DNA of 34,832 nucleotides from Sphingopyxis sp. Lineage in GTDB: Bacteria; Pseudomonadota; Alphaproteobacteria; Sphingomonadales; Sphingomonadaceae. The notes beneath the pieces were generated by a model. That model ran no database searches, was not told the origin of the DNA, and saw only the letters and a program-made list of their open reading frames with translations. Position numbers and translations under genes: made by a program. The first letter of the stretch is position 1; the number at the start of each line of letters is the position of its first letter. The stretch lies in NCBI GenBank assembly GCA_026125835.1, contig JAHCKJ010000001.1:1-34832 (forward strand). The letters are read 5' to 3'. Below, piece by piece: positions 18,063-34,622 of the stretch.

Positions 18063-18178
18063 TGCTGTAAATGTCGCGCTTCGGTCGCTAGCAATCATCT
18101 GCCCTGCTATTCTCCTCCACGTAACAGCGACAACGGTGCCACTTGCCGTCGGCCCATGACCCGCCATAACCCGTTGCC

Positions 18179-19549
18179 ATGCGCATGCCTTACGCCCCGC
18201 TCGCCCTCGCCGCCGCCCTGCTCGCCGCTGCGCCCGTCCATGCCAAACCTGCCGACGCCGACGCCGCGAAGCAGATCCTGAAGGACAGCATCGCGATCCC
18301 GACGGTCGAGGGGCGCGGCAGTGCCCGAACTGGCGGCCTATTATGCCAGGGTGCTGAAGGCGGCGGGCTATGCCGACAGCGACATCGAAATCACCCCGAT
18401 GGGCGAAACCGCAACCCTGGCGTGACGCTGACCGGCACGACGAAGAAGAAACCGATCCTGCTGCTCGGCCATATGGATGTTGTCGCGGCCGACCCGAAGG
18501 ACTGGACGCGCGATCGTTCGTGCCGGTCGAGGAGAATGGCCATATTTTTTCGGTAACGGGTCGGAGGACAACAAGTTCGACATCGCGATGATGGTGGCGA
18601 CGATGGCGCAACTCAAACGCGACGGCTTCAAGCCGCAGCGTTCGATCATCCTGTTATGACGGGGGACGAAAAGAAACCCAGATGGTGACGACCCGCGCTC
18701 GCCGCCCCAATAAGGACGCCGGGTAGCATTGAACGGCGACGGCGGCGAGAAGGACGCTCGGCGAGGATGGCAAGCCGCAATATTACGGAGCTGCAGGCGG
18801 GCGAAAAAACCTACGCCGACTTCACGCTCGAAGTCACCAACCCCGGCGGTCACAGCTCGCGCCCGTCGCCGATCAACGCGATTGTCCAACTCGCCGCGGC
18901 GCTCGAAAAGGTCGGCGCCTATAAATTCGCGGCGCAGCAGAACGAGCTGACGAAGATCGGCCTGCCGATCGTCGCCGAACAGGTCGGCGGCGACATCGGC
19001 GCCGCGCTCAAGGCGTTCGCCGCCAATCCGGCCGACGAAGCGGCGATCACCAAGATCCGCGCCGACCCCGAATATGTCGGCCAGATCGGCACCACCTGCG
19101 TGCCGACGCTGGTCAAGGGCGGCCATGCCGAAAATGCGCTGCCGCAGCGCGCGACCGCGAACATCAACTGCCGCATCTTCCCCGGCGTGCCGGTCGAAAG
19201 CGTGCGCGCCGAGCTTGAGCGCGTGATCGCCGATCCGGCGGTCAAGGTTCACACCGATCCCGACGCCAGCGCCAGCGACGCCTCGCCGCTGCGCCCCGAC
19301 GTCATGGCGGCGGTCAAAAAGGCAGTCCACGCCCGCGCCCCCGGCCTGCCGATCATCCCCTCGATGAGCGCAGGCGCCACCGACAGCTATCATTTCCGGA
19401 TGCAGGGCGTGCCGAGCTATGGCGTTGCGGGACTGTTTTCGAAAGCCAGCGACAGCTTCGCCCACGGCCTCAACGAACGGGTGCCGGTCGACGCGATCGC
19501 TCCTGCGCTGGCGCATTGGGACAGTTTGCTCAGGGATTTGTCGAAGTAG
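18179..19549 (+). CDS. Secreted M20/M25/M40 metallo-hydrolase; multiple frameshifts at 18315-18790 (sequence error or pseudogene)
   Basis: Signal peptide, GHMDVV, EDNK, GDEE (broken), GEKTYADF, GGHSSRP, GATDS and HGLNER. The C-terminal 250 aa are intact. Confidence 0.8.
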
Positions 19550-19656: not shown

Positions 19657-20247
19657 TTAAACCAATGCCGCAACCGCCCGCTCGATCATCGCCACCGCCG
19701 CATCGGCGCCGAAACTGCCCGCGTCGAGCGACAGCTCGAGCCACAGCCCGTCGACCATCGCGGTCAGCATGATCGCCAGCCGCTCGGCATCGCGCGCGCC
19801 GCAGGCGGTCAGCAGCTCGCCCAGCCGCGCGCGGTAGCCGGCGTAACTTTCGGCGTGAATATCCGCCATCCGCGCGTCGCTGCGCGCCAGCGCCCAGAAG
19901 GCGGTCCACGCCCCCAGCAGTTCGGGATCGGTGACCGGGGCGCGGAAACTCGCGGTCAGATACGCCAGCAACCGCGCCCGCGGGTCGGCTCCGGCGCTCG
20001 CCACGGCGGCGGCAAAAATCGCGTCCATCCGGTCGCTCGTCGCCTGGTACGTCGCCGCGACCAGATCGTCGATGCCATCGAAATAATGGCGCAGCAGCCC
20101 CGGCGACACCCCCGCCTTCGCACAGATCGCGCGCACATTCGTCCCCGCCAGCCCATGCTCCGCCAACACCGCCGCGGTCGCCTCGATCAGGTCCGCCCGG
20201 CGGGCATCGGCGCTTTCGCGCGTAAAGGCTTGGCGAGCGGGCTGCAT
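19657..20247 (-). CDS. TetR family regulator, BetI-like
   Basis: RRADLIEAT and ICAKAGVSPGLLRHYF (HTH); AWTAFW and AMVDGLWLE resemble the BetI C-terminal domain. Confidence 0.88.
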   Translation of the reverse strand: MQPARQAFTRESADARRADLIEATAAVLAEHGLAGTNVRAICAKAGVSPGLLRHYFDGIDDLVAATYQATSDRMDAIFAAAVASAGADPRARLLAYLTASFRAPVTDPELLGAWTAFWALARSDARMADIHAESYAGYRARLGELLTACGARDAERLAIMLTAMVDGLWLELSLDAGSFGADAAVAMIERAVAALV

Positions 20248-20271
20248 CTTGTTATACGTTTGTATAACAAG
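20248..20271. promoter_or_regulatory. Operator palindrome between the TetR and Rieske genes
   Basis: CTTGTTATAC-gttt-GTATAACAAG is a perfect 10-bp inverted repeat filling most of the 33-bp divergent gap. Confidence 0.85.
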
Positions 20272-20280
20272 GATCGATTC

Positions 20281-21447
20281 ATGGCAACGCTGCGCGACAC
20301 TTTCGACCACATCGACGAACTCGACGGCTGGTCGCTCCCCGCCTGGACCTACAGCGACCCCGACTTCTACGCCGCAGAAATGGCGCGGATCTTCCGCCCC
20401 AGCTGGCAGGTCGTCTGCCACGACAGCGACATCCCGAACCCCGGCGACTGGCACAGCATCGATTATTGCGGCGAAAGCGTCCTCGTCGTGCGCGGCGCCG
20501 ACCGCATCGTGCGCGCCTTCACCAACGTCTGCCGCCACCGCGGCTCGCGGCTGGTCGATGGGTCAGCAGGCTGCGCGAAAAAGCTCGTCTGTCCCTATCA
20601 CGCCTGGACCTACGACCTGGACGGCCGTCTGACCGGGGTGCCCGACAGCGCGAGCTATCCGACGCTCGACAAAGCAAAGGCATCGCTGGTGCCGGTCGGC
20701 CTCGAGCAATGGCGTGGTTTCTGGTTCGTGCGCCTGACCGGCGATGGCGGACCCTCGGTCGCCACGATGATGGCGCCCTATGAGGAACAGGTTGCACCCT
20801 ACCGCTTCGAGGAACTCGGCGCTTTGGGCCGCGTCACCCTCCGCCCGCGCGACGTGAACTGGAAAAATGTCGGCGACAATTATTCGGACGGCCTCCACAT
20901 CCCCGTCGCCCACCCGGGACTGACCCGCCTGTTCGGCAAAAGCTATGGCGTCGAGGCGACGACCCACGTCGACCGGATGTGGGGCGACCTGATCGACCGG
21001 CCGTCGGTCAATTGGTCCGAACGCATGTACCAGCGGCTGCTGCCGCCGGTTCCGCACCTGCCGCAAGCGAGCCAGCGCCACTGGCTCTATTTCAAGCTGT
21101 GGCCCAATGTCGCCTTCGACATCTATCCCGACCAGGTCGATTTCATGCAATGGCTGCCGACCGGCCCGACGAGCTGCCTGATCCGCGAAATCAGCTATGT
21201 CCTCCCCGATGACCGCCGCGAAATGAAGGCGGCGCGCTACCTCAACTGGCGGATCAACCGTCAGGTCAACGCCGAGGATACCGTGCTCATCACCCGCGTC
21301 CAGCAGGGCATGGCGTCGCAGAGCTTCACCATCGGGCCGCTCAGCGACAAGGAAGTGTGCCTCAAGCATTTCTGCGCGCGGATGCGCGAACTGATCCCCG
21401 AATCCCGCCTCGAACAAGCCCCGCGTGCGGGATGGAGCAAAGCATGA
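20281..21447 (+). CDS. Rieske non-heme iron oxygenase alpha subunit, choline monooxygenase/betaine demethylase-like
   Basis: CRHRG...CPYHAW Rieske motif, NWK...DGLHIPVAHP and C-terminal ED mononuclear Fe ligands; no beta-subunit gene. Confidence 0.92.
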   Translation: MATLRDTFDHIDELDGWSLPAWTYSDPDFYAAEMARIFRPSWQVVCHDSDIPNPGDWHSIDYCGESVLVVRGADRIVRAFTNVCRHRGSRLVDGSAGCAKKLVCPYHAWTYDLDGRLTGVPDSASYPTLDKAKASLVPVGLEQWRGFWFVRLTGDGGPSVATMMAPYEEQVAPYRFEELGALGRVTLRPRDVNWKNVGDNYSDGLHIPVAHPGLTRLFGKSYGVEATTHVDRMWGDLIDRPSVNWSERMYQRLLPPVPHLPQASQRHWLYFKLWPNVAFDIYPDQVDFMQWLPTGPTSCLIREISYVLPDDRREMKAARYLNWRINRQVNAEDTVLITRVQQGMASQSFTIGPLSDKEVCLKHFCARMRELIPESRLEQAPRAGWSKA

Positions 21448-23046
21448 CCAAGCAGTATGACGCCCTGATCATCGGCGCCGGCCACAATGGCCTTGTCTGC
21501 GCTTTCTATCTGGCGCGGGCGGGGCTGAAGGTGCGGATTGTCGAGGCGCGCGACGTCGTCGGCGGCGCCGCGGTGACCGAGGAATTTGCCCCGGGTTTCC
21601 GCAATTCGGTGGCGAGCTACACGGTCAGCCTGCTCCAGCCCAAGGTCATCGCCGACATGAAGCTCGCCGATCATGGCTACCGCGTGATCGAGCGGCCGAT
21701 CAGCAATTTCCTGCCGCAGGAAGATGGCGGCTATTTGAAGCTCGGCGGCGGGCTCGAGCGCACGCAACAGGAATTTGCCCGCTTCTCCGCGCACGACGCG
21801 GCGCGGCTGCCCGCATATTATGATATGCTCGAAGGCGTCGCCGACGTGCTCCGCGATCTCGCGCTCAAATCGCCGCCCAACGTCGGCGACGGGTTCAAGA
21901 CCTTGATCGACGCCGCGCGGCAGGGGCGCGGCCTCGCCAAACTCAGCCTGTCGCAGCAGCGCGATGTGCTCGAACTCTTCACCAAATCGGCGCGCACCTT
22001 CCTCGACAGCTGGTTCGAAAGCGAGGCGGTCAAGGCCGCGTTCGGCTTCGACGCGGTGGTCGGCAATTATGCCAGCCCGGACACCCCGGGCAGCGCCTAT
22101 GTCCTGCTCCACCACGTCTTTGGCGAGGTGAATGGCAAGAAAGGCGCGTGGGGCCACAGCGTCGGCGGCATGGGCGCGATTACGCAGATGATGGCGAAGG
22201 TCTGCACCCGGCTGGGGGTCGAGATCAGCCTCGAAGCGCCGGTGTCGCGGGTGCTTGTCGATGGCGGCAAGGCGGTCGGGGTCAAGCTGGTCGGCGGCGA
22301 GGAAATCGCCGCTGACCGCGTCATCGCCAATGTCGGCCCGAAACTCCTCTACGAACGGATGTTCGACGAAGGCGACATCGCGCCCGAGTTCCGCCGCCGG
22401 ATCAAGGCGTTCAAGGCGGGCAGCGGGACGTTCCGCATGAATGTCGCGCTCAGCGAGCTGCCGCTTCCTTGCTTGCCCGAACGCGGCGAGCATCATCAGT
22501 CGGGGATCATCCTCGCCCCGACGCTCGATTATATGGACCGCGCGCCTTCCTCGACGCGAAACATGGCTGGTCGAAGCAGCCGATCGTCAGAAATGCTGAT
22601 CCCCTCGACCGTCGATGACAAGCCTCAACCCCTCCCTGGCCAGCATGTCGCGAGCCTGTTCTGCCAGCAGTTCGCTCCCGAACTGCCCGATGGACGCGAC
22701 TGGGACGCCGAGGAAGAGTGCCGCCGGCTTCATCATCGACACCGTCGAAGCGCACGCCCCCGGTTTTCGCGCCTCGATCGTCGGCCGCCAGATCCTAAGT
22801 CCCAAGGGGCTCGAACGCAAGTTTGGCCTCGTCGGCGGCGACATCATGCACGGCAATATGAGCCTCGACCAGCTATGGTCGGCGCGCCCGGTGCTCGGCA
22901 ACGGCGCGTATCGCGGGCCGCTCAAGGGTCTCTATATGTGCGGCGCCGGCACGCATCCCGGCGGCGGCGTCACCGGTGCGCCGGGGCATAATGCCGCGCA
23001 CGTGATCCTGCGCGATCGGGGTTTGTTCGCGCCGCGCTGGCGGTAG
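21444..23046 (+). CDS. FAD-dependent oxidoreductase, COG1233 (phytoene desaturase-like/PYROXD2-like); frameshifts at 22460-22725
   Basis: GAGHNGL, GGAAVTEE, SAYVLLHH, GGMG, GGDIMHG and LYMCGAGTHPGGGVTGAPGHNAA; ATGA overlap with the Rieske stop. Confidence 0.88.
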
Positions 23047-23053
23047 CGCGCGC

Positions 23054-24355
23054 TCAGGCAGTCGCGGCGATCCGTGCCGCGGCAAAACGCGTCCAGGCAT
23101 AGAGCGGCAGGCCTGCCGCCATCAGCACCAGGCTGAGCGCGCTGACGCTTATCCCGGCCCCCCACAAGGTCCACAGCGCATAGGAAAGGCCGATCAGCGC
23201 GACCGGGATCGCAACGCGCAGCCGCAAGGCGGCGGCGGCGCAGGCGAGGTACAGCCACAGTGTCACCGACGTCGACAGCACCGCCATAAAGGTGAACATC
23301 TCGCTGGTCGATTTATTGTTGTTCAGCACCACGCATGCGGTGGCGATCAGGCTGGACAGCAAAAGCGAGACAGCCGGGGTGCCGTGCCGGTTCTGCCGCG
23401 CCAGCCAGCCAGGCAGCAGACCCCGTTCGGCCAGCCGCGCGGGCTGTTCGGCCTGGATCAGCGTCCAGCCGTTGAGCGCGCCGAGCGCACTGATCGCGGC
23501 AAATGCGGCGATCCACGCCCCTGGTCCGGGTCCCCCATAGGTTTCGACGAAAAGCGAAAAGGGCGCCTCCGACGCGGCCACCGCGGCGGGCGGCAGCATC
23601 AGCGCGATCGCCGAACAAACGACCAGATAGATCAGCCCCGTCGCCAAGGTTCCGATCATCGTCGCGCGCGGGATATTGACCGCCGGCCGGTCGACTTTGG
23701 CGGCGGCGACGCTCGCCGATTCGAAACCGAGCAAGGCCCACAGGGTCAGAATTGCCGAACCGCTGACCGCCGTGAGCGACAGGCCGTCGACGGGGAAAGG
23801 GGTCAAAACGACCGGTTCGCCGCGCGAAAAGGCGATGGGGATCAGGATGATGACGGCCAGCAGCGGGATCAGCTTGATCGCCAGCGTGACGACCTGGAAC
23901 CCGCCGCTGGCGCGGGCGCCCTGCCAGTTGACCGCGGTAACGATCCAGATCAGCGCGATCGTCGATATCGCCATATGCTGCCCCAGCACCGGCATGAACA
24001 GGCTGAGAAAGCTGACCGCCGCGACCGCCAGCGTGACGTTGGCGGTCCACACCGACACCCAATAGGCCCAGCCGATCATGAAGCTGGGGATGCGGCCAAA
24101 GGCGCGCTCGACAAAGCCCGTAGGCCCGCCGGCGTCGGGGTGAGCGATGGTCAGCCGGGCAAGAACGAAGGCGAGCGCAAGCGCGCCGCCGATGGTGATC
24201 GCCCAGCCGACGACACCGTTCCAGCCAAAGGGGGCAAGGCTGGCCGGAAGCAGAAATACCCCCGAACCGATCATATTGCCCATGACCAGCGCGATCGCCA
24301 TCGAAAGGCCAAGCTTGCGCCTTGGCCTTTCGTGGGGATTTGTCGTCGCGGTCAC
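23054..24355 (-). CDS. APC-superfamily amino acid permease (PotE/CadB-like)
   Basis: GNMIGSGVFLLPASLA, GWAYW, LWALLGFESA and NIPRAT; 12 TM; starts 4 bp after the receptor stop. Confidence 0.9.
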   Translation of the reverse strand: MTATTNPHERPRRKLGLSMAIALVMGNMIGSGVFLLPASLAPFGWNGVVGWAITIGGALALAFVLARLTIAHPDAGGPTGFVERAFGRIPSFMIGWAYWVSVWTANVTLAVAAVSFLSLFMPVLGQHMAISTIALIWIVTAVNWQGARASGGFQVVTLAIKLIPLLAVIILIPIAFSRGEPVVLTPFPVDGLSLTAVSGSAILTLWALLGFESASVAAAKVDRPAVNIPRATMIGTLATGLIYLVVCSAIALMLPPAAVAASEAPFSLFVETYGGPGPGAWIAAFAAISALGALNGWTLIQAEQPARLAERGLLPGWLARQNRHGTPAVSLLLSSLIATACVVLNNNKSTSEMFTFMAVLSTSVTLWLYLACAAAALRLRVAIPVALIGLSYALWTLWGAGISVSALSLVLMAAGLPLYAWTRFAAARIAATA

Positions 24356-24359
24356 CCGG

Positions 24360-26744
24360 TCAGAAGTCCTTGCTCACCTTGATTCCGATCAGCCGCGGCC
24401 GGATGACATTGTCATAGAAAACGCCGCCGGTGCTGCTGATCCCGTCGGGATCGCCACAGATCGATTCGCCGCACTGGACCGCGCTGTTGATGACGCCGCG
24501 GCTGTTGAACAAATTGGTCGCGAACAACTCGCCGCTCCAGCCCTCGCCCTTGACGCCAAAGCTGATGTCGGCGGTGGTATAGGCTTTGAAATTGCCGACG
24601 ATGCCGTTCTCGAACGGCCGGAGGTCCGACCGGCGCTTGCCGATATGGTTGGCCGCAAACTGGACGTGGCCGTCCATGCCGCCGACCGGAAAGACATAGC
24701 GCGCGATCGCATTGCCCTTGAATTTGGCGGTGACTGGCAGGCGCGAACCGGCAGGCGCCAGCAGCGCGTTGGTCTGCCCCGGCGGATTGATCGTGCAATC
24801 GAAAGTGGGATTGGCGATGCGGCAGAAATCGCGCCGGATCGTCGCGTCGTTATAACTGCCGCCCAGGCTGACCGACAAACCCCCCGACCGATAGTTGAGA
24901 TCGGCCTCGATCCCGCGGATGCGCGCGATCCCGGCGTTGCGGATTTCGGTCAGGCCGTTGGCGCCCAGGAACGACAGCTGGATGCCGTTCCAATCCTGTT
25001 GGTACACGGCGCCATTGAACCGCAGCGGCCCGAACGACGTTTTCCAGCCGAACTCGTAATTGTCGAGCGTATCGGGGCTGTAGGGAGGCAATGTCCCGCG
25101 CCGGTTGATCCCGCCCGGGCGGAAACCGCGCGACCAGGTGCCGTACAGCATCACATCGTCGCTGACCTTGTAGGTCAGGTTGAGCTTGTGAATGAAGTCG
25201 GTGTCCTTGGTCCGCTTGTCGAGGTTGGTACAGGGCGAACCGGCCACGATGGTCGGCGCGAAGCAGGCGGCTTCGCCCGTCCGGCTGCTGAACCCTGCCG
25301 AATAGCCGAAGAAACCGACCAGGCTGTTGTCGAACTTATACACGCGCCCGCCGCCGGTCAGCGTCAGCTTGTCGGTGATATCGAAACTGATTTCGCCGAA
25401 CGCCGCATAGTCGCGGTCGATGCGGAGCTGCTTGGTCAGCCAGATATTGCTGTCGGTGCCGGTGACCGTGATCGCGTCGGCGATATTGTCGATGATGTAA
25501 TTCTGTTCGATATTGTGCGACTGGCGCTGCCAGAACAGGCCGCCGATAAAGCGGATGCGCGCATCGGCGGGCGAGGCGACGCGGATTTCGGCGAAGCTGC
25601 GCTTGTAGCGGTCGACGCCCTGGATATATTGGTTCGGATTGACCGGGTTGCCATTGTTGTCGGTGAAATAGGCGCCATAGCCATAGAGCGCGTCATAGAA
25701 ATAGGCATAGTCCGAATAGTCGCTTTCGGTCTCGGTCTTGCGGCGCAGATGGCCCCCGGTCGCCGTCAAATCCCAGCTGCCGATCTTGCCCTCGATCGTC
25801 ATCGCGGCCTGGATCCATTTGTCGTCGCCGCGTTCGGGGTTGTATTGCACCGTTTGCAGGGTGCGGCTGACCGCGGTCGAGCGTTCCTGGGCAAAGCTGC
25901 CGTTCGCCTTCTGGACCTGTCCCATCACATTGGGACGGATCGTCCAGTCGTCGTCGAGTTCGATGCCAAGCGCGAGGCGCGCGCCATAGGTATCGACATC
26001 GTTATAGTCCTTTTCGACCAGATTGGCGTTCGACTGGGTAATACCGCTCGTCGGATAGGTGCGGCTGCCCGCGATATTGTCGATATAGCCGGCATCGTGG
26101 CGATACCAGCCCACGAGGCGCAGCGCCGCGCGCTCGCCGAGCGCCGCGTTGACGAAGCCTTCGCCCACTCCGCCGATGCCGCCGCGCGATACCGAATTGA
26201 GCTCCAATCCCATCGACCCGTATGTGCCGCTGGTGTCGGGCTGGTTGGTGACCAGCTTGATCGTGCCCGCCATCGAACTGGCGCCGTACAGCGTCCCCTG
26301 CGGCCCCGCCAGCGCCTCGACGCGCGCCAGATCGTAAGCGTGAATGTCGAGCGCGCCCTGGATCGTCGTGATCGGCATTTCGTCGAGATAGGTGCCGACG
26401 GTCGGCAGCGACGCCGAGTGGTTGGCATTCTCACCCGACGCGACGCCGCGGAAATAGACCTGGCTGAACCCGGGGGCGAGCGTCTGGATCGTTACCGACG
26501 GCAGGAATTTCACGACGTCCTGAAATTCCTTGACCTGCAACTCGTCGAGCCGCTCGGCGCCGATCGCGGTGATTGCCAGCGGCACGTCCTGCAGATTCTG
26601 CTCGCGCTTTGACGCGGTGACAACAATGTCGCGATCGTCGTTCGTCGTCGCACCCTGCGCCAGCGCCGTGCCCGACGTGCACAGGATCGTGCTGCCCAGC
26701 AGCAGTGCGCCGCCGCGTGCCAGCTTTGCCGAAACTTTCATCAT
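24360..26744 (-). CDS. TonB-dependent receptor
   Basis: Signal peptide, TonB box region DIVVTASKREQNLQDVP, RVEALAGPQGTLYG, C-terminal Phe; GAGGGG RBS. Confidence 0.95.
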   Translation of the reverse strand: MMKVSAKLARGGALLLGSTILCTSGTALAQGATTNDDRDIVVTASKREQNLQDVPLAITAIGAERLDELQVKEFQDVVKFLPSVTIQTLAPGFSQVYFRGVASGENANHSASLPTVGTYLDEMPITTIQGALDIHAYDLARVEALAGPQGTLYGASSMAGTIKLVTNQPDTSGTYGSMGLELNSVSRGGIGGVGEGFVNAALGERAALRLVGWYRHDAGYIDNIAGSRTYPTSGITQSNANLVEKDYNDVDTYGARLALGIELDDDWTIRPNVMGQVQKANGSFAQERSTAVSRTLQTVQYNPERGDDKWIQAAMTIEGKIGSWDLTATGGHLRRKTETESDYSDYAYFYDALYGYGAYFTDNNGNPVNPNQYIQGVDRYKRSFAEIRVASPADARIRFIGGLFWQRQSHNIEQNYIIDNIADAITVTGTDSNIWLTKQLRIDRDYAAFGEISFDITDKLTLTGGGRVYKFDNSLVGFFGYSAGFSSRTGEAACFAPTIVAGSPCTNLDKRTKDTDFIHKLNLTYKVSDDVMLYGTWSRGFRPGGINRRGTLPPYSPDTLDNYEFGWKTSFGPLRFNGAVYQQDWNGIQLSFLGANGLTEIRNAGIARIRGIEADLNYRSGGLSVSLGGSYNDATIRRDFCRIANPTFDCTINPPGQTNALLAPAGSRLPVTAKFKGNAIARYVFPVGGMDGHVQFAANHIGKRRSDLRPFENGIVGNFKAYTTADISFGVKGEGWSGELFATNLFNSRGVINSAVQCGESICGDPDGISSTGGVFYDNVIRPRLIGIKVSKDF

Positions 26745-26758
26745 GAGACCCCCCTCGA

Positions 26759-26785
26759 ATGACAACTGTATGACGACAGCATGAC
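26759..26785 (-). promoter_or_regulatory. Triple 11-bp-period GTCAT direct repeat (pho-box/OmpR-family-like)
   Basis: Plus-strand ATGAC at 26759, 26770 and 26781; TTGACA on the minus strand at 26794-26799. Confidence 0.5.
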
Positions 26786-26898
26786 GCAGCACCTGTCAAG
26801 CGCAAGCCTTGTTCGCCGTACCGGTACGCTGCTGGTGGAAAATGTCGCCTTCTGTTGCTGAAAGGCAACGATTCGTCGCCGTCAATCGACGCTTCGCT

Positions 26899-28713
26899 TC
26901 AGTCGAAAAGCAGCGGAACCGCCGGATAATCCTCCAGGACCGCGCCCAGCGCATCCCTCAGCGGACCCAGCCAGGCTTCATAGGGGCGCCACTGGTCGAC
27001 CCCGTCGCGGTTGATCGGACGCCGCACCTGCTCGCTCGACGCGGTGCGCACGGCGCGTGCATTGGTGTGAAACGCCATGCAGGCGTCCTCGAACGGCAGG
27101 TCGAGATAGCTCAGCATCGCTCGTACTTGAGCTTCCGGATCGTCGAGCAATGCTTCGTGGATCACGCGGTGGACCCGCCCGGGCTGCACGGCGTCGATAT
27201 GCGCCATCAACCGGACATAATCACGGTAATAGGCGCCCATGTCCGTCAGGCCATAGCTGAACGCCTGCCCCTTGGCATAGTGCTGGCGGAAATTGGACCA
27301 GCAGCAATCGAGCGGATGCCTCCGCGCATCGATGATCTTCGCATTCGGCAGGATCAGGCGGATCAGCGGCACATAGCGCCAGTTGTTCGGCAGCTTGTCG
27401 ATATAGAAAGGTTTGCCGGTCTTGCGCTGCACCGCGGTGCGGCGAAGGAAGGCGGCACCCATTTCGGCCAGCCGTTCGGGCGGCGCGTCGGCAAGCGCGG
27501 CGACCCAATGCCGCCCCTCGCCCTGCGTTTCGCGGCCGAGGCCGAGTGCGAGGGCCGGAATATCGGGCAGCTCCATCGTGCCCTCGATCGCCGAATGGCT
27601 GGCGAGGATCTGCTCGACCAGCGTCGATCCGGCACGCGGCATCCCAAGGATGAAGATCGGATCGGGCGCCGGATCGCCGGCGTTAGCGCGCGCCGCGAAA
27701 AAGTCGGCAGTGCAGGTGGCGATGACCGCATCGACGGTGGCGCGGGTCTCGGCCGGATCATAGCCAAGCTGCGCCGCGCGGATGGCATTGCCGGCGGCAT
27801 AATGGCCGAACGCGGCTTTGGCATCCTCCGCATCGTCATAGGCCTTGCCGAGCGCGAAATGCAGGTGCAGCCGGTCGTCGTCGCGCGACGCGTCGGCGGG
27901 GTCGGCGGCGGCCAGCGCCGCCTCCATCGCCGCGCGGTCGTCGGCTTCGAACCTGATGGTCTTGAGATTCGCCAGGCTCCACCACAATTCGCCAAGGCCG
28001 GGATCGGCCGCCAGCGCGTGGCGATAGGCGGCAATGCAGGCGTCCTGCCGCCCGACCGTCTTGAGCATATGACCATAGCTCATCCACAGCTTGGCATGGT
28101 CGGGGAAGCGTCCGGTCAATTGTTCGTACAGCGCGATCGCCTCGTCATAGCCGCCGATGCGGCCGAGCGCGGCGGCCTTCAGATTGGCGTGGGCCGGATT
28201 GTCCGGATCCTCGTCCAGAACGGCGTCGAGCGCCGCTACGGCGTCGGCGTAGCGGTTCTGCTTGTAAAAGACGGTGGCAAGGTTGGCCCGCGCGGCGCCG
28301 AAACCCGGCGCCAGTTCCAGCGCGCGCAAGAGCAGTTTCTCGGCGTCGCCATAACGGCCGATCCGGCCCGCAACCTCGGCCAGCATGCGGATCGCCGCGA
28401 CGTCGGTCGCATCGTCGCGCAGTCGCGCGCGCAATGCTGCCTCGGCGTCGGGCAGACGATCTTCGGCCAGCGCCAGCGCGGCGGCGACCATCGCCTCGTC
28501 GTGGATCGTTGCCGCGACGGCGGCGAGCGATGCGGCCTGCGCCTCTTCCTCGCGATCGAGCGCGCGTAGGGCGTGGGCGGCGATGCGGTGTGCCGCTGCC
28601 GATGTCGGCACCGCCTCGATGATCGCCTGCGCCTGCGCCAGCGCGCTGGCGGGTTCGGCGCGCAGCAGCTGGCGGGCGTTGGCGAGCGCCGCGTCGAGCG
28701 TGACCGTCGCCAC
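26899..28713 (-). CDS. TPR-repeat sulfotransferase
   Basis: N-terminal TPRs; PAPS-binding PIFILGMPRAGSTL, DKLPNN, RRHPLDCCWS and TASSEQVRRPI. Confidence 0.92.
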   Translation of the reverse strand: MATVTLDAALANARQLLRAEPASALAQAQAIIEAVPTSAAAHRIAAHALRALDREEEAQAASLAAVAATIHDEAMVAAALALAEDRLPDAEAALRARLRDDATDVAAIRMLAEVAGRIGRYGDAEKLLLRALELAPGFGAARANLATVFYKQNRYADAVAALDAVLDEDPDNPAHANLKAAALGRIGGYDEAIALYEQLTGRFPDHAKLWMSYGHMLKTVGRQDACIAAYRHALAADPGLGELWWSLANLKTIRFEADDRAAMEAALAAADPADASRDDDRLHLHFALGKAYDDAEDAKAAFGHYAAGNAIRAAQLGYDPAETRATVDAVIATCTADFFAARANAGDPAPDPIFILGMPRAGSTLVEQILASHSAIEGTMELPDIPALALGLGRETQGEGRHWVAALADAPPERLAEMGAAFLRRTAVQRKTGKPFYIDKLPNNWRYVPLIRLILPNAKIIDARRHPLDCCWSNFRQHYAKGQAFSYGLTDMGAYYRDYVRLMAHIDAVQPGRVHRVIHEALLDDPEAQVRAMLSYLDLPFEDACMAFHTNARAVRTASSEQVRRPINRDGVDQWRPYEAWLGPLRDALGAVLEDYPAVPLLFD

Positions 28714-28722
28714 CGCCCGCCG

Positions 28723-30330
28723 TCAGCTCTTGGCCGCGCGGGCCTTGGCGACCGCCTGCCGCAACGCGGCGTAACCGATCTGGCCCTGCAGCAGCTGGTT
28801 GCCGACGACCCAGGTCGGGGTAGCGTTGAGCTGCAACTGGCTCGCGATCGCGAGGTTGCTGTCGAGTTCGCGCTGGAACAAGGCCTCGTTGGCGGTGGCG
28901 TCGGCGCTGCCGTCGGTCACCACCCCGGCGCGCCGCGCCGCCTCCGCAATCCCGGCGGCATCGAGCGAGCCGACCGCGAACATCGCATGGTGAAACGCGT
29001 CATATTTGCCCTGCCGCGCCGCGGCGAGCGCCATCAGCGCGGCATCGCGGCTTTGCGGCGCGATGATCGGCAGCTCGCGGAACACGACCTTCAACCGTTT
29101 GTCCTCGCGGATCAGCCGGTCGACATCGGGGACACTCGCGCGGCAGAAGCCGCAGGCATAATCGGTGAACACCACCAAAGTCACATCGCCGTCGGCGTTG
29201 CCCGCCCATGCCCCGGCATAGGGCTTTTCGAGCGCCGGACGGATCGCGCCGATCGCCTTGGCAATCTCGCCGTTGCGCTGCGCTTCCAGCGCCTCGGGAA
29301 TGATCTGCGGGTTCGCCTTGATATAATCGGCGACGATCGTTTCGACCTCGCCCTTGCTCATGCCGCCGACCGTCCGTCCGCCGAGCCAGAAGGCGGCAGC
29401 GAGCCGCAGCGCGCCGCCGGCGGCCAGCGCGATCCACGTCCGCGTCGATCCGCCGTCCATTCCATTCCCCTTCAGTTGCGGCAAAGGGCTTGCCGCCATG
29501 GCGCGCGCGGCCGGTTTTCTTGCCTTGGGCGGTGGCAGCGGCGAACGGTCGTCGCCCTCGCCCGACGGCGCCGCATCCGGCCCGGCGCGGGACGTTGCCG
29601 CGGCCAGCGTTGCATCTCCGGCAAAGAGCGGCAGGTCGGCCGCCGCCGGGCGGGCCTGCTGCGCCGTCGCTTCCTCGCGCGCCAGCAATTGTTCGAGCCC
29701 CGACGGCGGCGTCTCCTCACCGCGCGGCGCGGGGCGCAGCCGGGTCGCCGCGTCGCCCAGGCTGCCCTTGATGCTTTCGCTGCCCGATCGGGCGATCTGG
29801 CCAACGCCTGCCCTGGTCTTTCCGGCCACTTCGCCCAGTCCGCGTCCGGCCTCGTTCGACAGCTTGCGTACCTTTTCGCCCAGCGCCAGCCTGTCCCACG
29901 CGGCGCCACTGGCCCGCGCGGCGGCGCGGGCCGCGCTGGCCGAGGTGCGCCCGGCAGCGCTTGCGGCCGTGGTCGTCGCGGCCGCGATCTTCCCCGCGCC
30001 CTCGCGCGTCCGGCGCGGGATCTCCATCGCTTCGACGCGCGCGGGGATGTCCGCGCGGTCGCCAAGGTCGATCGTCCAGTCGGCGAAACGCGCGGCACCG
30101 CGGCGCAGCGCCTGCCACAGGCGCGCGCTTCCCGCCTTCACCTGGTCCGCGGTGACAACCGGCTTGCGCGCGGGCGTTTCGGGTGCGGCATAGCGCGACA
30201 CGTCAAGGCCGACGGGCGGCACCTCGCGCGGCTTTGCCAGCCCCTCGTCGGGCGCAACCGGCGACGGCGCGCGGTCCGGCGCGGCGTGGCGCAGCCAAGG
30301 CTGGTAATAATCGTCTTTCTTATCGGTCAC
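28723..30330 (-). CDS. DsbA/ScsC-like thiol-disulfide oxidoreductase with long N-terminal extension (alternative start at 29460)
   Basis: FTDYACGFC, RELPII, ATPT cis-Pro loop, IVADYIKANPQIIPEA helix and a TM anchor. Confidence 0.85.
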   Translation of the reverse strand: MTDKKDDYYQPWLRHAAPDRAPSPVAPDEGLAKPREVPPVGLDVSRYAAPETPARKPVVTADQVKAGSARLWQALRRGAARFADWTIDLGDRADIPARVEAMEIPRRTREGAGKIAAATTTAASAAGRTSASAARAAARASGAAWDRLALGEKVRKLSNEAGRGLGEVAGKTRAGVGQIARSGSESIKGSLGDAATRLRPAPRGEETPPSGLEQLLAREEATAQQARPAAADLPLFAGDATLAAATSRAGPDAAPSGEGDDRSPLPPPKARKPAARAMAASPLPQLKGNGMDGGSTRTWIALAAGGALRLAAAFWLGGRTVGGMSKGEVETIVADYIKANPQIIPEALEAQRNGEIAKAIGAIRPALEKPYAGAWAGNADGDVTLVVFTDYACGFCRASVPDVDRLIREDKRLKVVFRELPIIAPQSRDAALMALAAARQGKYDAFHHAMFAVGSLDAAGIAEAARRAGVVTDGSADATANEALFQRELDSNLAIASQLQLNATPTWVVGNQLLQGQIGYAALRQAVAKARAAKS

Positions 30331-30385
30331 TTGTCGCCCTCGAACCGCGCTGGATCGCGATGCGCCGCCTCTGTCTCACCCGAAT

Positions 30386-31780
30386 CTAGCGCCGTTTGCG
30401 CCCGCGTTCCACCTCGGCGCGGGCCACCAGCGAAATATCCTGGGCACGGATCCAGTCGGGCGAGCCTTGGGACAGGCCCTGCATTGCCATTTCGGCATTA
30501 CGCAGCGCCAGCGCCGCCTGTCCACCCTGCAGATTATAGCGTTCCGCCGAAGCGAGCGCGGCGCGCGCCTGATCGCCCTTGTTCGCATAAACGATGCCGA
30601 GCTGGTACCAGGCGAAGGGGTTCTGGTTGTCGAGCGCCACCGCGGTCCGCAGCACCTTTTCGGCTTCGACAAAATTGGCCGGATCTTCGGTGGCGATCAG
30701 CGCGTGGCCCAGCGTTGCCGCGATCAGCGGCTGCGACCGCGATTTCGCGACCGCTTCGCGCAGCGGCGGCAATGCTTCGTCGGGGCGTCCCGATTCGAGC
30801 AGGATCTGACCCTCCAGCTCGAGGAAATAGGGATCGTCGGGATCGGTGGCGAGCAGCGCTTTCACCTCGGCCAGCGCATTTTGCGGATAGGCGCTGCGGT
30901 GCCACGCATAGGCGCGCGCATAGCGCGCCGGAATGCTGGTGTTGGATTCGGGATATTTGCGCAGCGTCCGGTCGGGGTCGGTCATATATCCCGACAGCTT
31001 CGCCTTGACGCGCTGGAACCGTCTTTCGATGTCGGGGTCGGCCGGCTTTTCCCAGGCCGGATCGACGACATAGACCTCGCGCAGCGTCTGGATGCGGTCG
31101 CCCGACATCGGGTGGGTCCGGCCGTAAGCCTGGTCGTCATCCTGTTTGACCGCGTAACGAAACTCGAGATTTTGAAGCTTTTTGAAAAAGGCCAGGCTGC
31201 CGCGGCCGCTGATGCCCGCGGCCGACAGATATTGGGCACCGGCGGCGTCGGCGGTCGATTCCTGCACCCGTGAAAAGGCCAGAAACTTGCCCAGCGCCGC
31301 CTGCTGACCCGCCATCATGATGCCCATGCCGGCCTCGCCGCCACCCGCCGCGATCGCCGCGGCACCGAGCAGCAGGCTGAGGATCGAGATACCTGTTGCG
31401 GCCTTGGCACCGTCGTTGATCCGGATGGCGTGGCCGCCCATGATGTGGCCGAGTTCGTGGGCCAGCACGCCCTGGACTTCCTCGGCGGTGTCGGCCGCCT
31501 CGATCAGTCCGGCAAAGACATAAACATCCTGGCTGCCCGCGACGAACGCATTGATGCTGGGGTCGCCGAGCAAGTGAACCCGCACCTGGCCGGGCTGAAG
31601 CCCCGCCGCGACGGTGAGCGGGTCCATCATGTCGCGAAACAGCGCCTCTGTTTCGGCATCGCGCAGGATCGACTGCGCCATGGCCGGCCGCGTTGCCACG
31701 GCAACCATCGCAAGCAGGGTCAGCAACAGGCGCGTCAGGTGACGCAGTACGGGCGCGGCTTGCTGGGAACGGGCGATCAT
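30386..31780 (-). CDS. M48 family metalloprotease with TPRs (BepA-like)
   Basis: ILRDAETE, INAFV, HELGH, FSRVQESTAD and RTHP; start uncertain. Confidence 0.9.
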   Translation of the reverse strand: MIARSQQAAPVLRHLTRLLLTLLAMVAVATRPAMAQSILRDAETEALFRDMMDPLTVAAGLQPGQVRVHLLGDPSINAFVAGSQDVYVFAGLIEAADTAEEVQGVLAHELGHIMGGHAIRINDGAKAATGISILSLLLGAAAIAAGGGEAGMGIMMAGQQAALGKFLAFSRVQESTADAAGAQYLSAAGISGRGSLAFFKKLQNLEFRYAVKQDDDQAYGRTHPMSGDRIQTLREVYVVDPAWEKPADPDIERRFQRVKAKLSGYMTDPDRTLRKYPESNTSIPARYARAYAWHRSAYPQNALAEVKALLATDPDDPYFLELEGQILLESGRPDEALPPLREAVAKSRSQPLIAATLGHALIATEDPANFVEAEKVLRTAVALDNQNPFAWYQLGIVYANKGDQARAALASAERYNLQGGQAALALRNAEMAMQGLSQGSPDWIRAQDISLVARAEVERGRKRR

Positions 31781-31805
31781 TGCCGTTTCCCTTGCCGCAC
31801 CCGTC

Positions 31806-31820
31806 TGAACCTTTCGTGAA
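31806..31820 (-). promoter_or_regulatory. TTCA-N7-TTCA direct repeat
   Basis: Minus strand TTCAcgaaaggTTCA, 25 bp upstream of ATG 31780. Confidence 0.5.
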
Positions 31821-31889
31821 GCCATGGACACTTATTGGGCGTCGTCGCGCACGGGCGCAAGGTTCGGCGTGAGATTTCGGGTATCGGCA

Positions 31890-31941
31890 GCCGTCCAGAG
31901 GCGTAGCGGACCGGCCCCCGCTTTCGCGGGGACCGGACGGC
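31890..31941 (-). terminator. Stem-loop downstream of rne (terminator or half-REP)
   Basis: CCGGCCCCCGC-tttc-GCGGGGACCGG, with an alternative outer pairing GCCGTCC/GGACGGC; no clear T-tract. Confidence 0.45.
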
Positions 31942-31961
31942 GCTTCGTCATATGCAGCGGC

Positions 31962-34622
31962 TCAGTTGCCGAAGGTGCGTTGCCACCAACCGCGGCGGGG
32001 TTCGCCGTCGGGACCGGTGTCGCCCGCATCGCCATCGGCCGCGACCGGTTCGGCCTCGCCGGTTGTCACGGCGTCGGGCGCCGCTTCGGCGGCTACCGCC
32101 TTTTTGGCCCGGCTGGCGCGCTTTTTGGGTGCAGGCTTGGCGGGTTCGGCCTCGACCTCCTCCGCAGCGACTGTCGTTTCGACCGGGGCGACCGCCTCGG
32201 CGGTTTGCGCGGTTTCGCTCGCCTCGGCTTCGGCCGCAGCCTTGGCCTTGCGCGGCGCGCGCTTGCGCTTCGGCTTTTCCTCGGTAGCGGGGGCGTCGTC
32301 GGCGACCGGCTCGGCTGCCACGGCCCCGGCGACCGGCTCGGCTTCGCTCTCCGCTGCGCCATCATCAACCGTCTCCGCCGTGTCGGCCTTTTTGCGGCCA
32401 CGACCGCCGCGGCGACGGCGCGGCTTGGCTTCGGCGGCCTCGGCCTCGGCGGCTTCGTCGGTTCCTTCGGGTGCCGCATCGGCGTCGGCGTCAGCGTTCT
32501 GGGCGTCGGTCGCTTCGGCGCCTTCGCCAATCTCGTTGCCATCCTCGTCGCGGCGACCGCGGCGACCACGGCGGCGGCGGCGGCGGCGCTTGCGGCCCTC
32601 ACCATCGGTGTCGCCGTCGCCTTCCTCGCGCGAGCGTTCGCGCGGGCGGCGGTCTTCCGCCGCTTCCGCTTCGGCGACGTCTTCATCCTCGTCCTCGGGG
32701 GTGTCGTCGTCGTCGTCCTCGATCGGGGCAATCGGGGCAAAGCTGCGGCGCTGGGTCGGCGGCGGGCCGGTTACCTCGACCGCCATGCGCGCGCCCTCGG
32801 TTTCGCCGTCGGGCAGGATCTCGACGCTGACGCCGTAAAGTTCCTCGATGTCCCGCAGCTCGCGGCGCTTTTCGTTGAGCAGGTAGAAGGTCGCTTCCTG
32901 GCTCGCGCGCAGGGTGATGCGGCTGCCCTTGCCGCGTGCCGCTTCCTCTTCGATCAGGCGCAGCGCGCTCAGACCCGCCGACGATGCGGTGCGGACCAGC
33001 CCCGTGCCTTCACAATGCGGGCACGGGCGCGTCGAGGCTTCGAGCACGCCGGTGCGCAGCCGCTGGCGGCTCATTTCCATCAGGCCGAAGCCCGAAATAC
33101 GCCCGACCTGGATGCGCGCGCGGTCGTTCTTCAGCGCGTCCTTCATCGCGCGCTCGACCTTGCGGACGTTCGAGCCATGATCCATGTCGATGAAGTCGAT
33201 CACGATCAGCCCCGCCATATCGCGCAGGCGCAGCTGGCGGGCGATTTCGGCGGCGGCCTCCAAATTGGTGCTGACCGCGGTCTGCTCGATATTATGCTCG
33301 CGCGTCGAGCGGCCCGAGTTGATGTCGATCGATACCAAGGCCTCGGTCGGGTTGATGACCAGATAACCGCCCGATTTCAGCTGGACGACCGGATTGAGCA
33401 TTCCGGCGAGCTGGTCCTCGACGCCGTAGCGCTGGTATAGCGACACCGGGTCGGCATATTGTTTCACGCGCCGGGCGTGGCTCGGCATCAGCAGTTTCAT
33501 GAACTGCTTGGCGGCCTTGTAGCCCTCGTCGCCCTCGACGAGCACTTCCTCGATGTCCTTGTGATAGATGTCGCGGATCGCGCGTTTGACCAGGTCGCTG
33601 TCCGAATGGACCAGCGCCGGGGCGCTCGATGCCAGCGTCTTTTCGCGAATCTCGTCCCACAGGCGGGCGAGATAATCGAAATCGCGCTTGATCTCGACCT
33701 TGGTGCGGCTCATCCCGGCGGTGCGGACGATGCAGCCCATCGTCGGCGGCAGGTTGAGCTCGTCGATCATCGCCTTCAGCTTGCGGCGGTCGGCGCCGTT
33801 CGAAATCTTGCGGCTGATCCCGCCGCCGTGCATCGTGTTCGGCATCAGCACGCAATAGCGGCCGGCGAGCGACAGATAGGTGGTGAGCGCGGCGCCCTTG
33901 TTGCCGCGTTCTTCCTTGACGACCTGCACCAGCATCACCTGGCGGCGGCGGATAACGTCCTGGATCTTGTAGCGGCGGCGCAGCGACATGCGATTTTCGC
34001 CGTCGTCGTCATCGCGGCGGCCACGACCGCGGCCGCCGCCCTTGCGGCCATTGCCGCGCCCGCGTCCGCGACCCTTGCGGTCACCGCGATCGTTCCGACC
34101 TTCACGGCCTTCTTCAGATCCTTCGCCGCCCTCTTCGCCGTCGCCATTCTCTGCGTCGCCCTGATCGTCGCGGTCGTCGCGGTCATCGTCGTCGCCATCG
34201 TTGCGTTCGTCACGATCATCATCGTCGCGGTCGTGGCGGCTGTCGCCATTGTCGTCGTCATGATATTCGACGTCGGCGACATCGCCTTCGAGTTCGTCGA
34301 GGTCGTCCTCGGCGCGCTGCGCGGCGGCGGCGGCATGTTCGGCCTCTTCGCGCAGCAGCGCGTCGCGGTCTTCCTTCGGAATCTGGTAATAATCGGGATG
34401 GATTTCGCTGAACGCCAGGAACCCGTGGCGATTGCCGCCATATTCGATGAACGCCGCCTGCAGCGACGGTTCGACGCGGGTGACCTTGGCCAGATAGATA
34501 TTGCCCTTGAGCTGTTTATGCTCGGCGGACTCGAAATCAAACTCCTCGATGCGGTTTCCCTTGGTGACGGCGACCCGGGTTTCTTCCCGGTGCCGCGCGT
34601 CGATCAACATGCGCGTGGTCAT
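31962..34622 (-). CDS. rne: Ribonuclease E
   Basis: MTTRMLIDA, KGNIYLAKVTRVEPSLQAAF, IDINSG, DFIDM, CPHC Zn-link, charged disordered C-terminal domain and terminal GWW. Confidence 0.97.
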   Translation of the reverse strand: MTTRMLIDARHREETRVAVTKGNRIEEFDFESAEHKQLKGNIYLAKVTRVEPSLQAAFIEYGGNRHGFLAFSEIHPDYYQIPKEDRDALLREEAEHAAAAAQRAEDDLDELEGDVADVEYHDDDNGDSRHDRDDDDRDERNDGDDDDRDDRDDQGDAENGDGEEGGEGSEEGREGRNDRGDRKGRGRGRGNGRKGGGRGRGRRDDDDGENRMSLRRRYKIQDVIRRRQVMLVQVVKEERGNKGAALTTYLSLAGRYCVLMPNTMHGGGISRKISNGADRRKLKAMIDELNLPPTMGCIVRTAGMSRTKVEIKRDFDYLARLWDEIREKTLASSAPALVHSDSDLVKRAIRDIYHKDIEEVLVEGDEGYKAAKQFMKLLMPSHARRVKQYADPVSLYQRYGVEDQLAGMLNPVVQLKSGGYLVINPTEALVSIDINSGRSTREHNIEQTAVSTNLEAAAEIARQLRLRDMAGLIVIDFIDMDHGSNVRKVERAMKDALKNDRARIQVGRISGFGLMEMSRQRLRTGVLEASTRPCPHCEGTGLVRTASSAGLSALRLIEEEAARGKGSRITLRASQEATFYLLNEKRRELRDIEELYGVSVEILPDGETEGARMAVEVTGPPPTQRRSFAPIAPIEDDDDDTPEDEDEDVAEAEAAEDRRPRERSREEGDGDTDGEGRKRRRRRRRGRRGRRDEDGNEIGEGAEATDAQNADADADAAPEGTDEAAEAEAAEAKPRRRRGGRGRKKADTAETVDDGAAESEAEPVAGAVAAEPVADDAPATEEKPKRKRAPRKAKAAAEAEASETAQTAEAVAPVETTVAAEEVEAEPAKPAPKKRASRAKKAVAAEAAPDAVTTGEAEPVAADGDAGDTGPDGEPRRGWWQRTFGN

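Follow-up and report, generated by a model that had tools for sequence, protein, structure and literature searches.

We have analysed a cluster of six genes in a stretch of 34,832 nucleotides (the window; contig C1 of an assembly of 404 contigs, 2.4 Mb and 81% complete) whose nearest named relatives are Sphingopyxis, with Rieske proteins 88-90% identical. The cluster encodes a BetI-subfamily TetR repressor, a Rieske oxygenase, a PYROXD2-family flavoprotein, an APC permease, a TonB-dependent receptor and a tetratricopeptide repeat (TPR)-sulfotransferase and is, as its sequence and conservation indicate, a real, conserved and uncharacterised catabolic system built from known kinds of protein. 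There is good support for a function of the cluster in N-dealkylating a methylated cationic amine; among specific substrates methyl-lysine fits best and is reasonably probable, and a stepwise mechanism of demethylation is put forward more tentatively. An earlier note on this DNA had claimed the six-gene layout, and all six genes and both close junctions (ATGA and a 4-bp gap) were verified. Of its proposal of import followed by N-dealkylation, the methylated cationic amine is now supported from several sides, while the predicted operator, which would indicate common regulation, was not found before the transport genes.

In the proposed pathway the TonB receptor and the AdiC-like permease would import N-epsilon-methylated lysines freed from protein; degradation of methylated proteins releases methylated lysines. 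Acting on trimethyl-lysine, the Rieske oxygenase would release one methyl group as formaldehyde, leaving the dimethyl and monomethyl amines to be oxidised by the flavoprotein in the next step. The substrate would be sensed by the TetR protein, inducing the Rieske-flavoprotein operon, electrons could reach the Rieske oxygenase from a stand-alone ferredoxin and ferredoxin reductase encoded elsewhere in the genome, and the formaldehyde may be disposed of by FrmA, FghA and PurU of the same genome. More tentatively, the division of labour may resemble that among the chromatin demethylases, the trimethyl form falling to an iron oxygenase and the di- and monomethyl forms to a flavoenzyme; human mitochondrial PYROXD2 may carry out the same flavoenzyme reaction, and pairs of receptor and sulfotransferase may serve methylated and quaternary amines generally as a module for entry across the outer membrane.

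Evidence for a methylated or quaternary amine comes from the BetI-subfamily repressor, whose own operator precedes the Rieske and flavoprotein genes, from the paralogs of the receptor and sulfotransferase that lie beside BCCT transporters and from the Rieske protein, which is nearest to CntA in both sequence and fold and has kept the tyrosine that binds the ammonium group in CntA. Its best match in the PDB is CntA (E 9e-37, ~29% identity), and the best fold matches of its model (predicted local distance difference test, pLDDT, 90) are CntA and then Stc2, with the aromatic dioxygenases ranking lower. The cysteine and histidine ligands and the 2-His-1-Asp iron site (C84, H86, C104, H107, H206, H211 and D333) are invariant, as are several aromatic residues of the catalytic domain that we would place in the pocket. 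At position 201, the equivalent of Tyr203 in CntA, 41 of 42 orthologs have Tyr and one has Phe, while the bridging residue is Asp (D203) in 42/42 as against Glu205 in CntA. In group Va enzymes an aromatic residue at position 203 binds the ammonium group, whereas the group Vb demethylases have Asn there (PMC7948474). The earlier note had assigned the Rieske protein to the GbcA/Stc2 type; by signature it does not belong there, as it carries the group Va Tyr. A Cys-x-x-Cys pair beside the iron marks the quaternary-amine Rieske oxygenases of group V (PMC10952381), and the orthologs lack it, having G/N/A/S and I/V at the Cys positions.

In a quick tree of 64 rows, which left out the choline monooxygenases, OxyBAC and Stc2, the Rieske protein falls in a 30-row clade of its own (Shimodaira-Hasegawa-like approximate likelihood-ratio test, SH-aLRT, 100) that is loosely joined to E. 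coli YeaW/CntA (support 85) and separate from GbcA as well as from BenA/HcaE, long branches limiting the confidence in this placement; on the NCBIfam GbcA model it scores 142.5/670 bits, below the cut-off. A grouping with the aromatic ring dioxygenases, which the earlier note had named as telling against its proposal, was thus seen neither in the tree nor in the fold ranking. Oxidation of a quaternary amine is the activity that we predict. No beta-subunit gene was found in the cluster loci or in the window's own genome, nor was a CntB/YeaX-type reductase in the ortholog loci or the 81%-complete own assembly, which encodes elsewhere a stand-alone ferredoxin reductase and an adrenodoxin-type ferredoxin; this type of ferredoxin reductase lies inside the cluster in 2/70 loci. 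The flavoprotein was considered as the reductase of the Rieske protein and judged unlikely in that role, as it is present without the Rieske in 40/80 genomes and in 11/12 Sphingobium plasmid records. One locus (L134, 8203-11315) carries two tandem Rieske genes of the window's clade, the first of which shares an open frame with a BetI-type TetR domain; this is either a fusion or an artefact of gene calling, and a similar long frame occurs in L141.

Because the frame of the flavoprotein gene is broken in the window, all tests of this protein were run on the intact relative L031. This protein is 46% identical to oyster PYROXD2 over its full length (E 5.5e-126, phmmer), and in a search of 1.84 billion representatives oyster PYROXD2 was among the top matches, with PYROXD2-named proteins of mayfly and flatworm just below; identity to the three animal proteins is 42-43% over aligned columns, and 43-46% is the overall range. 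The family is large, 7999/7999 scored candidates passing E 1e-50, and its database names are phytoene dehydrogenase-like. On the curated models for carotenoid enzymes the flavoprotein stays below the cut-offs (CrtO 265/1000 bits, CrtI-family 123/238 bits), with oyster PYROXD2 scoring similarly, so that by family scores an action on carotenoids, the other outcome that the earlier note had set against itself, is not indicated. The best fold matches are two carotenoid desaturases (19-20% identity), followed by amine oxidases. The resemblance to PYROXD2 that the earlier note had drawn holds as family membership; orthology was established neither by the trees nor by the approximately unbiased (AU) test, and the break in the frame had been missed. 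In two trees animal PYROXD2 groups with other bacterial sequences and not with the window's clade, and holding the window clade and the eukaryote-containing clade together was not rejected (AU test, p 0.286), which does not show that they are one clade. A bacterial flavoprotein among the nearest to animal PYROXD2 (L104, 10010-15138) has two Rieske genes, one sarcosine-oxidase-like gene and a SusC/SusD-like pair as its neighbours.

The argument for lysine rests on this family relationship, as PYROXD2 is tied to plasma methyl-lysines. A human PYROXD2 missense variant accounts for ~50% of the variance of plasma N6-methyl-lysine and ~48% of that of N6,N6-dimethyl-lysine, and also tracks N-methylpipecolate and trimethyl-lysine (PMC8109053). 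The earlier note had linked PYROXD2 variants to methylamine and N-methyl-lysine/pipecolate, and correctly so (PMC8109053, PMC13352909, PMC7878905). As for the order of the enzymes, flavin amine oxidases depend on the lone pair of the nitrogen, so that a quaternary amine is closed to them; for a series of tri-, di- and monomethyl forms one therefore expects an iron oxygenase acting ahead of the flavoenzyme. In keeping with this, the trimethylated analogue is not a substrate of flavin adenine dinucleotide (FAD)-dependent amine oxidases that accept the mono- and dimethyl forms (PMC10590968), which together with the distribution of the two genes argues for the Rieske acting before the flavoprotein.

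This distribution was determined in 151 genomes of the order at ortholog-level cut-offs, with the Rieske in 41 and the flavoprotein in 80: both were present in 40, the Rieske only in 1, the flavoprotein only in 40 and neither in 70. The flavoprotein is thus found in 40/41 genomes with the Rieske as against 40/110 without it, the sole Rieske-only genome holds a two-gene form of the flavoprotein family, and 25 of the 40 genomes with both have them side by side. The nesting of the Rieske within the distribution of the flavoprotein is what one would expect of a pathway whose flavoprotein can serve by itself and whose Rieske supplies it with substrate. Within the genus a Rieske ortholog was found in 21/24 other genomes. 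Conservation of the cluster was followed in 70 loci with a Rieske of at least 50% identity. The 22 loci from the genus carry the TetR in 21, the flavoprotein and APC permease in 20 each and the receptor and sulfotransferase in 19 each; the corresponding counts for the 48 loci from outside the genus are TetR 20, flavoprotein 33, APC 24, receptor 15 and sulfotransferase 17, and for the 26 of these with at least 5 kb on both sides TetR 11, flavoprotein 20, APC 16, receptor 8 and sulfotransferase 10. Among the loci are some from Novosphingobium, Sphingomonas, Caulobacter, Parvularculaceae and Steroidobacteraceae, between which the order of the genes varies, and the co-occurrence in other genomes on which the earlier note had made its proposal depend is therefore found.

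The TetR protein reaches 87 bits on Pfam TetR_C_6 (PF13977, BetI-type; cut-off 27) and has W-x-x-F-W and DGLWL in common with E. coli BetI. The BetI-like TetR of the earlier note accordingly has the BetI-type C-terminal domain but is not BetI, to which it is 23% identical; it stays below both NCBIfam BetI equivalog cut-offs (106.5/201 and 104.7/118 bits) and has a different operator. The nearest solved structure is 3E7Q (E 4e-38), whose supposed identity with PA4984 could not be confirmed. A role of the TetR protein as sensor of the pathway substrate is likely. A 24-bp palindrome (20248-20271) fills the TetR-Rieske intergenic space and is kept in relatives; it is the sole match in the window, where 4/100 shuffles reach one match, and with a matrix trained on 28 orthologous sites it is the sole strong site in the 2.4-Mb assembly (44.8 bits against 11.5 for the next and 12.3 for the best of three shuffles). 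The operator recurs before the Rieske, or before the flavoprotein where this comes first, in alpha- and gammaproteobacterial loci. Peptidases are frequent neighbours and have operator-like sites before them in two loci, in which a second such site separates a dipeptidase gene from a gene of the M20 or MFS type; in one Sphingomonas locus a site lies before the M20 hydrolase gene. Upstream of the receptor there is a different repeat, GTTGC-N6-GCAAC, which is present in 16/18 aligned upstream regions.

A basic amino acid from protein is suggested by the AdiC-type residues of the permease, by operons of an APC permease, a DDAH-like hydrolase and a Rieske, and by the peptidase neighbours. The permease has AdiC as its best PDB match (E 3e-53), is ~30% identical to each of AdiC, CadB and PotE, and stays below all equivalog cut-offs (best 267/409 bits). 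It keeps N22, G25-S26-G27, Y93, N101, W202, E208, W293, S357 and Y365 (AdiC numbering), which we take to be the binding and gate residues of AdiC, CadB and PotE; at the W202 and W293 positions most of 42 permease rows have W or F. No amino-acid decarboxylase was found in the window cluster. The AdiC-like permease and the DDAH-like and peptidase neighbours speak for a methylated basic amino acid rather than a classical betaine, and this permease type and context together with the PYROXD2 link are best fitted by N-epsilon-methyl-lysines. In a survey for which 70 selected proteins were scanned, at least 10 of 18 non-orthologous regions had receptor-sulfotransferase paralogs next to a transporter of the BCCT (betaine/carnitine/choline) type; in the window the pair adjoins the AdiC-like permease instead. 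We regard the pair as a candidate general outer-membrane module for quaternary amines. The TPR-sulfotransferase is the usual partner of this receptor type. Some of the regions with pairs beside BCCT (L148, L150-L156, L159, L164) also carry genes for choline-dehydrogenase-like or beta-keto-acid cleavage proteins. Two allele types are swapped at one position within the genus (L031-L052): identity to the window's protein is 42-46% or 76-85% for the permease and 48% or 76-91% for the receptor.

Demethylation is indicated by the one-carbon (C1) enzymes of related clusters, namely a GcvT-like protein, PurU, Fhs and MttB, and we read these folate and C1 enzymes as pointing to N-demethylation. The GcvT-like folate enzyme occurs in distant clusters of a Rieske and two flavoproteins in Gemmatimonadota and Acidobacteriota (6 loci), and in 4/4 rhizobial or roseobacter plasmid regions read, where it is accompanied by an aminotransferase and an ABC system of four genes, in one case with a polyamine-type annotation; some other related clusters have PurU, Fhs, MttB and NADH:flavin oxidoreductases. 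In the window's own genome (G000), genes for the formaldehyde dehydrogenase FrmA, PurU and an FghA-like esterase, the last identified from its sequence only, lie together on one strand (C168, 7169-11074; L201), by their annotation a C1- and formaldehyde-disposal operon. A separate Puu-type putrescine cluster (C347; L203) holds PotF-type ABC genes, two glutamine-synthetase-like ligases, an oxidase and aminotransferases, and GmaS was below the cut-off in the own assembly. Three other leads were dropped: an acyl-CoA dehydrogenase beside distant Rieske relatives reached no family cut-off and could therefore not be named glutaryl-CoA dehydrogenase, a nitrilase-family neighbour considered as a DavA-type amidase was identified as AguB instead, and the supposed location of the polyamine transporter of the Ruegeria pomeroyi megaplasmid in such a cluster proved wrong. 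The DDAH-like protein, an amidinotransferase-family hydrolase, lies in a conserved operon with the permease and Rieske (L207-L211, L213, L049 and L216); the order APC-DDAH-like-Rieske holds in 6/7 loci of another family and in L049, and that of L216 is DDAH-like-APC-TetR-flavoprotein-Rieske.

A number of points weigh against stepwise demethylation of methyl-lysines by this cluster. The substrate, the order of the enzymes, induction through TetR, the electron route and the disposal of formaldehyde are all deduced from sequence and context. The Tyr of the Rieske marks group Va, whose enzymes cleave or hydroxylate and do not demethylate, the known demethylases having Asn. The flavoprotein gene is broken in the window's assembly, the protein, by its sequence a PYROXD2-family member, falls in the trees into another clade than animal PYROXD2, and the family is broad, with polyamine, carnitine-like and histidine genes among its neighbours. 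No copy of the operator was found upstream of the receptor, permease or sulfotransferase genes, and many distant loci lack the transport half (receptor in 8/26). More distant members of the Rieske clade (37-49% identity) lie beside PotD/PotF-type ABC systems and omega-aminotransferases; the genome counts come from kin and are not independent; and no lysine-degradation gene was found in the cluster, nor HglS in the 81%-complete own assembly.

Some of these points lend themselves to other substrates. A methylated diamine, polyamine or omega-amino-acid betaine, such as trimethyl-cadaverine, N-methylputrescine, gamma-butyrobetaine or delta-valerobetaine, would be demethylated stepwise and its freed omega-amine transaminated. 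The wider Rieske clade, with its PotD/PotF-like ABC systems, class III aminotransferases, AguB and succinate-semialdehyde dehydrogenases, fits this, as do a PotD-family protein that binds gamma-aminobutyrate and 5-aminovalerate (PMC11113362) and N-acetyl-isoputreanine among the PYROXD2 associations (PMC8109053), and the permease residues are the same in CadB and PotE. We nevertheless consider it fairly unlikely: the Pot-type neighbours are mostly in the 37-49% branches, which have Asp or Asn at the Tyr position, whereas the window's branch has the APC permease, peptidases and DDAH-like neighbours; the own genome has its separate Puu-type cluster with its own PotF; and classical betaines would be expected with BCCT, as for the paralogous receptor-sulfotransferase modules. 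For methylated arginine, N-alpha-methylated histidine (the hercynine series) or all methylated basic amino acids, which we deem unlikely, speak the operons with the DDAH-like gene, including the related order of L216, the closeness of the permease to the arginine antiporter AdiC, and a flavoprotein ortholog (61%) at the end of a histidine-utilisation operon with hutH, hutG and hutU (L226, 1779-7440). The histidine link is, however, found in 1/13 flavoprotein loci read, the DDAH-like protein scores 99 against a DDAH family cut-off of 340, and an ortholog of it was found neither in five near-complete genus genomes (one weak 32% match) nor in the own assembly; as DDAH alone handles methylarginine, it would read as a parallel branch.

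Other alternatives concern the reactions and the unity of the cluster. The Rieske might cleave trimethyl-lysine in the manner of CntA to trimethylamine and aminoadipate semialdehyde, with the flavoprotein handling the mono- and dimethyl forms in parallel. This would suit the group Va Tyr and the position on the CntA side of the tree, the association of human PYROXD2 with urinary trimethylamine and plasma dimethylamine in the available reports, and the lack of a GcvT-like gene in alphaproteobacterial loci of the window's branch. It is nonetheless an improbable account, since from reactions running independently in parallel one would not expect the Rieske to depend almost strictly on the flavoprotein (40/41), no semialdehyde dehydrogenase was found in the window's cluster, and the Rieske joins CntA in the tree at a support of only 85, with long branches. 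If the two halves were independent modules that history has left as neighbours, with the oxidation operon under TetR control and the transporters serving another solute, this would explain the different conserved repeat before the receptor in place of an operator, the swapping of permease and receptor alleles in the genus (identities of 42-46% against 76-85% for the permease) and the sulfotransferase gene starting 9 bp after a housekeeping dsbA gene. The recurrence of APC beside the Rieske in varied orders and orientations in distant lineages (16/26), sometimes in the same operon, and the company of receptor, sulfotransferase, TetR, two flavoproteins and a GcvT-like gene in a gammaproteobacterium (L158) make this very unlikely. 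Hardly credible, finally, are the automatic names, by which the Rieske would oxygenate aromatic rings and the flavoprotein would be a desaturase or ketolase of carotenoids: the family names, the two best folds and the bridging Asp, as in aromatic dioxygenases, agree with them, but they are contradicted by the low scores on the CrtO and CrtI models, which oyster PYROXD2 shares, by fold identities of 19-20%, by the lack of a beta subunit, by the separation from BenA and HcaE in the tree and by the failure to find carotenoid or ring-cleavage genes among the scanned neighbours in loci of the window's branch. Uptake and stepwise demethylation of N-epsilon-methyl-lysines thus remains the reading that we prefer.

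The features of the window that belong to the system are collected in Table 1. The Rieske TGA overlaps the flavoprotein ATG at 21444-21447, the Rieske-flavoprotein operon and the transport genes converge with a gap of 7 bp between them, and permease and receptor are 4 bp apart; the longest open reading frame of the receptor starts at 26792, the ATG at 26744 being preferred from the alignment with relatives. Scans for sigma-70 promoters and terminators gave no more matches than shuffled sequence.

Table 1. Features of the cluster in the window (positions are those of the whole stretch).
Feature	Position	Strand	Remarks
M20 metallo-hydrolase (PRK09133 type)	18125..19549	+	Frequent neighbour; possibly part of the system; also with an indel patch
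BetI-subfamily TetR repressor	19657..20247	-	196 residues; true ATG at 20247; Pfam TetR_C_6
Palindromic operator, predicted	20248..20271		CTTGTTATAC-N4-GTATAACAAG, 24 bp, lies between the starts of TetR and Rieske
Rieske non-heme iron oxygenase, alpha-only	20281..21447	+	Pfam Rieske and Ring_hydroxyl_A; divergent from TetR
PYROXD2-family (COG1233-type) flavoprotein	21444..23046	+	~534 residues in relatives; frame broken in the assembly
Window-specific indel patch in the flavoprotein gene	22463..22718	+	Net -2; likely sequencing or assembly error
AdiC/CadB/PotE-type APC permease	23054..24355	-	Basic amino acid or diamine type
TonB-dependent receptor	24360..26744	-	Pfam Plug and beta-barrel; start likely ATG 26744
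GTTGC-N6-GCAAC inverted repeat	26854..26869		Upstream of the receptor; candidate site for a second regulator
TPR-sulfotransferase	26899..28713	-	Pfam TPR and Sulfotransfer_3

Comparison with the relatives suggests that the frameshift in the flavoprotein gene is likely an error of sequencing or assembly. Against each of the two closest relatives, which have an intact flavoprotein and the same ATGA junction, there are 14-16 gapped bases, all of them within the patch; the indel positions are identical against three relatives and no gaps occur elsewhere in the gene. The C-terminal 109 residues lie in another frame, ending with the TAG at 23044-23046, and both sides of the break are 93-94% identical to the intact third relative. 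A patch of indels resembling this one was seen in the M20 hydrolase gene, and a gene near 13582-14563 has a change of frame relative to a relative at ~14307-14318; going by these alignments, the assembly probably holds local error patches at all three places.

The M20 metallo-hydrolase is a neighbour in 26 loci of the clustering. On the other side of the cluster, genes for RNase E, an M48 protease and a DsbA-like protein with a long low-complexity N-terminal part (28723-34826) run co-directionally into the sulfotransferase gene. Insertions are also seen in the relatives: a PRK06185-type FAD-dependent oxidoreductase lies between the Rieske and flavoprotein genes in 12 Sphingopyxis-type loci (L034-L038, L040-L044, L051 and L052; e.g., L042, 8478-9734) and an AAA ATPase between flavoprotein and permease in four. 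Two Sphingobium replicons (L169 and L172) show the same locus with and without the Rieske before the flavoprotein, adjoined by a gene of the bile-acid:sodium symporter family.

In the literature searched, mostly the main texts of open-access papers, we found no description of the Rieske clade, of the operator or of the pairing of a Rieske with a PYROXD2-family protein, no bacterial demethylation route for methylated lysines, and no enzyme activity for PYROXD2; the available parts of PMC11007814, PMC7293031, PMC8041468, PMC12476043, 10.1101/2020.07.29.226225 and 10.1101/072470 added nothing decisive. If the proposal is true, the cluster would represent an undescribed bacterial pathway recycling methylated lysines from protein turnover and would offer a bacterial model for PYROXD2, both questions being made testable by a single family member, a defined predicted operator and culturable hosts. 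The "phytoene dehydrogenase" label that a large family now bears would likewise be corrected, and a new clade of Rieske oxygenases defined.

Among known systems, the group Va enzymes CntAB/YeaWX are the closest to the oxygenase, with an alpha-only Rieske fold as the best match and a D-N-Y motif with the Tyr203 equivalent (PMC7948474). They differ in that CntA has Glu205 and the Cys206/Cys209 pair where the window Rieske has Asp and no pair, and the window cluster has a flavoprotein and an APC permease instead of a betaine transporter, with no CntB-type reductase found. In its proposed logic the cluster is closer to GbcAB and Stc2 of group Vb, that is, Rieske demethylation of a quaternary amine followed by a flavoenzyme acting on the remaining N-methyl groups; such downstream flavoenzymes belong to the glycine-betaine and stachydrine demethylation pathways. 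The score on the GbcA model, the clade separate from GbcA, Tyr in place of Asn, the PYROXD2-family second enzyme and the lack of a fused reductase gene set it apart from these. The flavoenzymes PbfB, PbfC and PbfD of N-methyl-aminoethylphosphonate catabolism are FAD oxidases that resemble the second step in that they channel mono- and dimethyl amines into a main pathway and refuse the trimethyl form, but belong to Pfam PF01266 and act on a different substrate, and no Rieske partner is described in the part of the paper available (PMC10590968). Animal PYROXD2 is alike over the full length at 43-46% identity to the oyster, mayfly and flatworm proteins so named, which were used for the comparison in place of the human sequence, and the window's branch is not the bacterial branch nearest to it in the trees. 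The E. coli BetI regulon has in common with the cluster the BetI-type C-terminal domain, the aromatic motif and a divergent promoter with a palindromic operator, and is set apart by the low identity, the scores below cut-offs, a different operator and betA, betB and betT, which do not adjoin here. The permease, lastly, differs from AdiC, CadB and PotE in having no adjoining decarboxylase, in following a TonB receptor and in its scores below the equivalog cut-offs, and is like them in its identity of ~30% to each and in the binding and gate residues that it appears to have kept.

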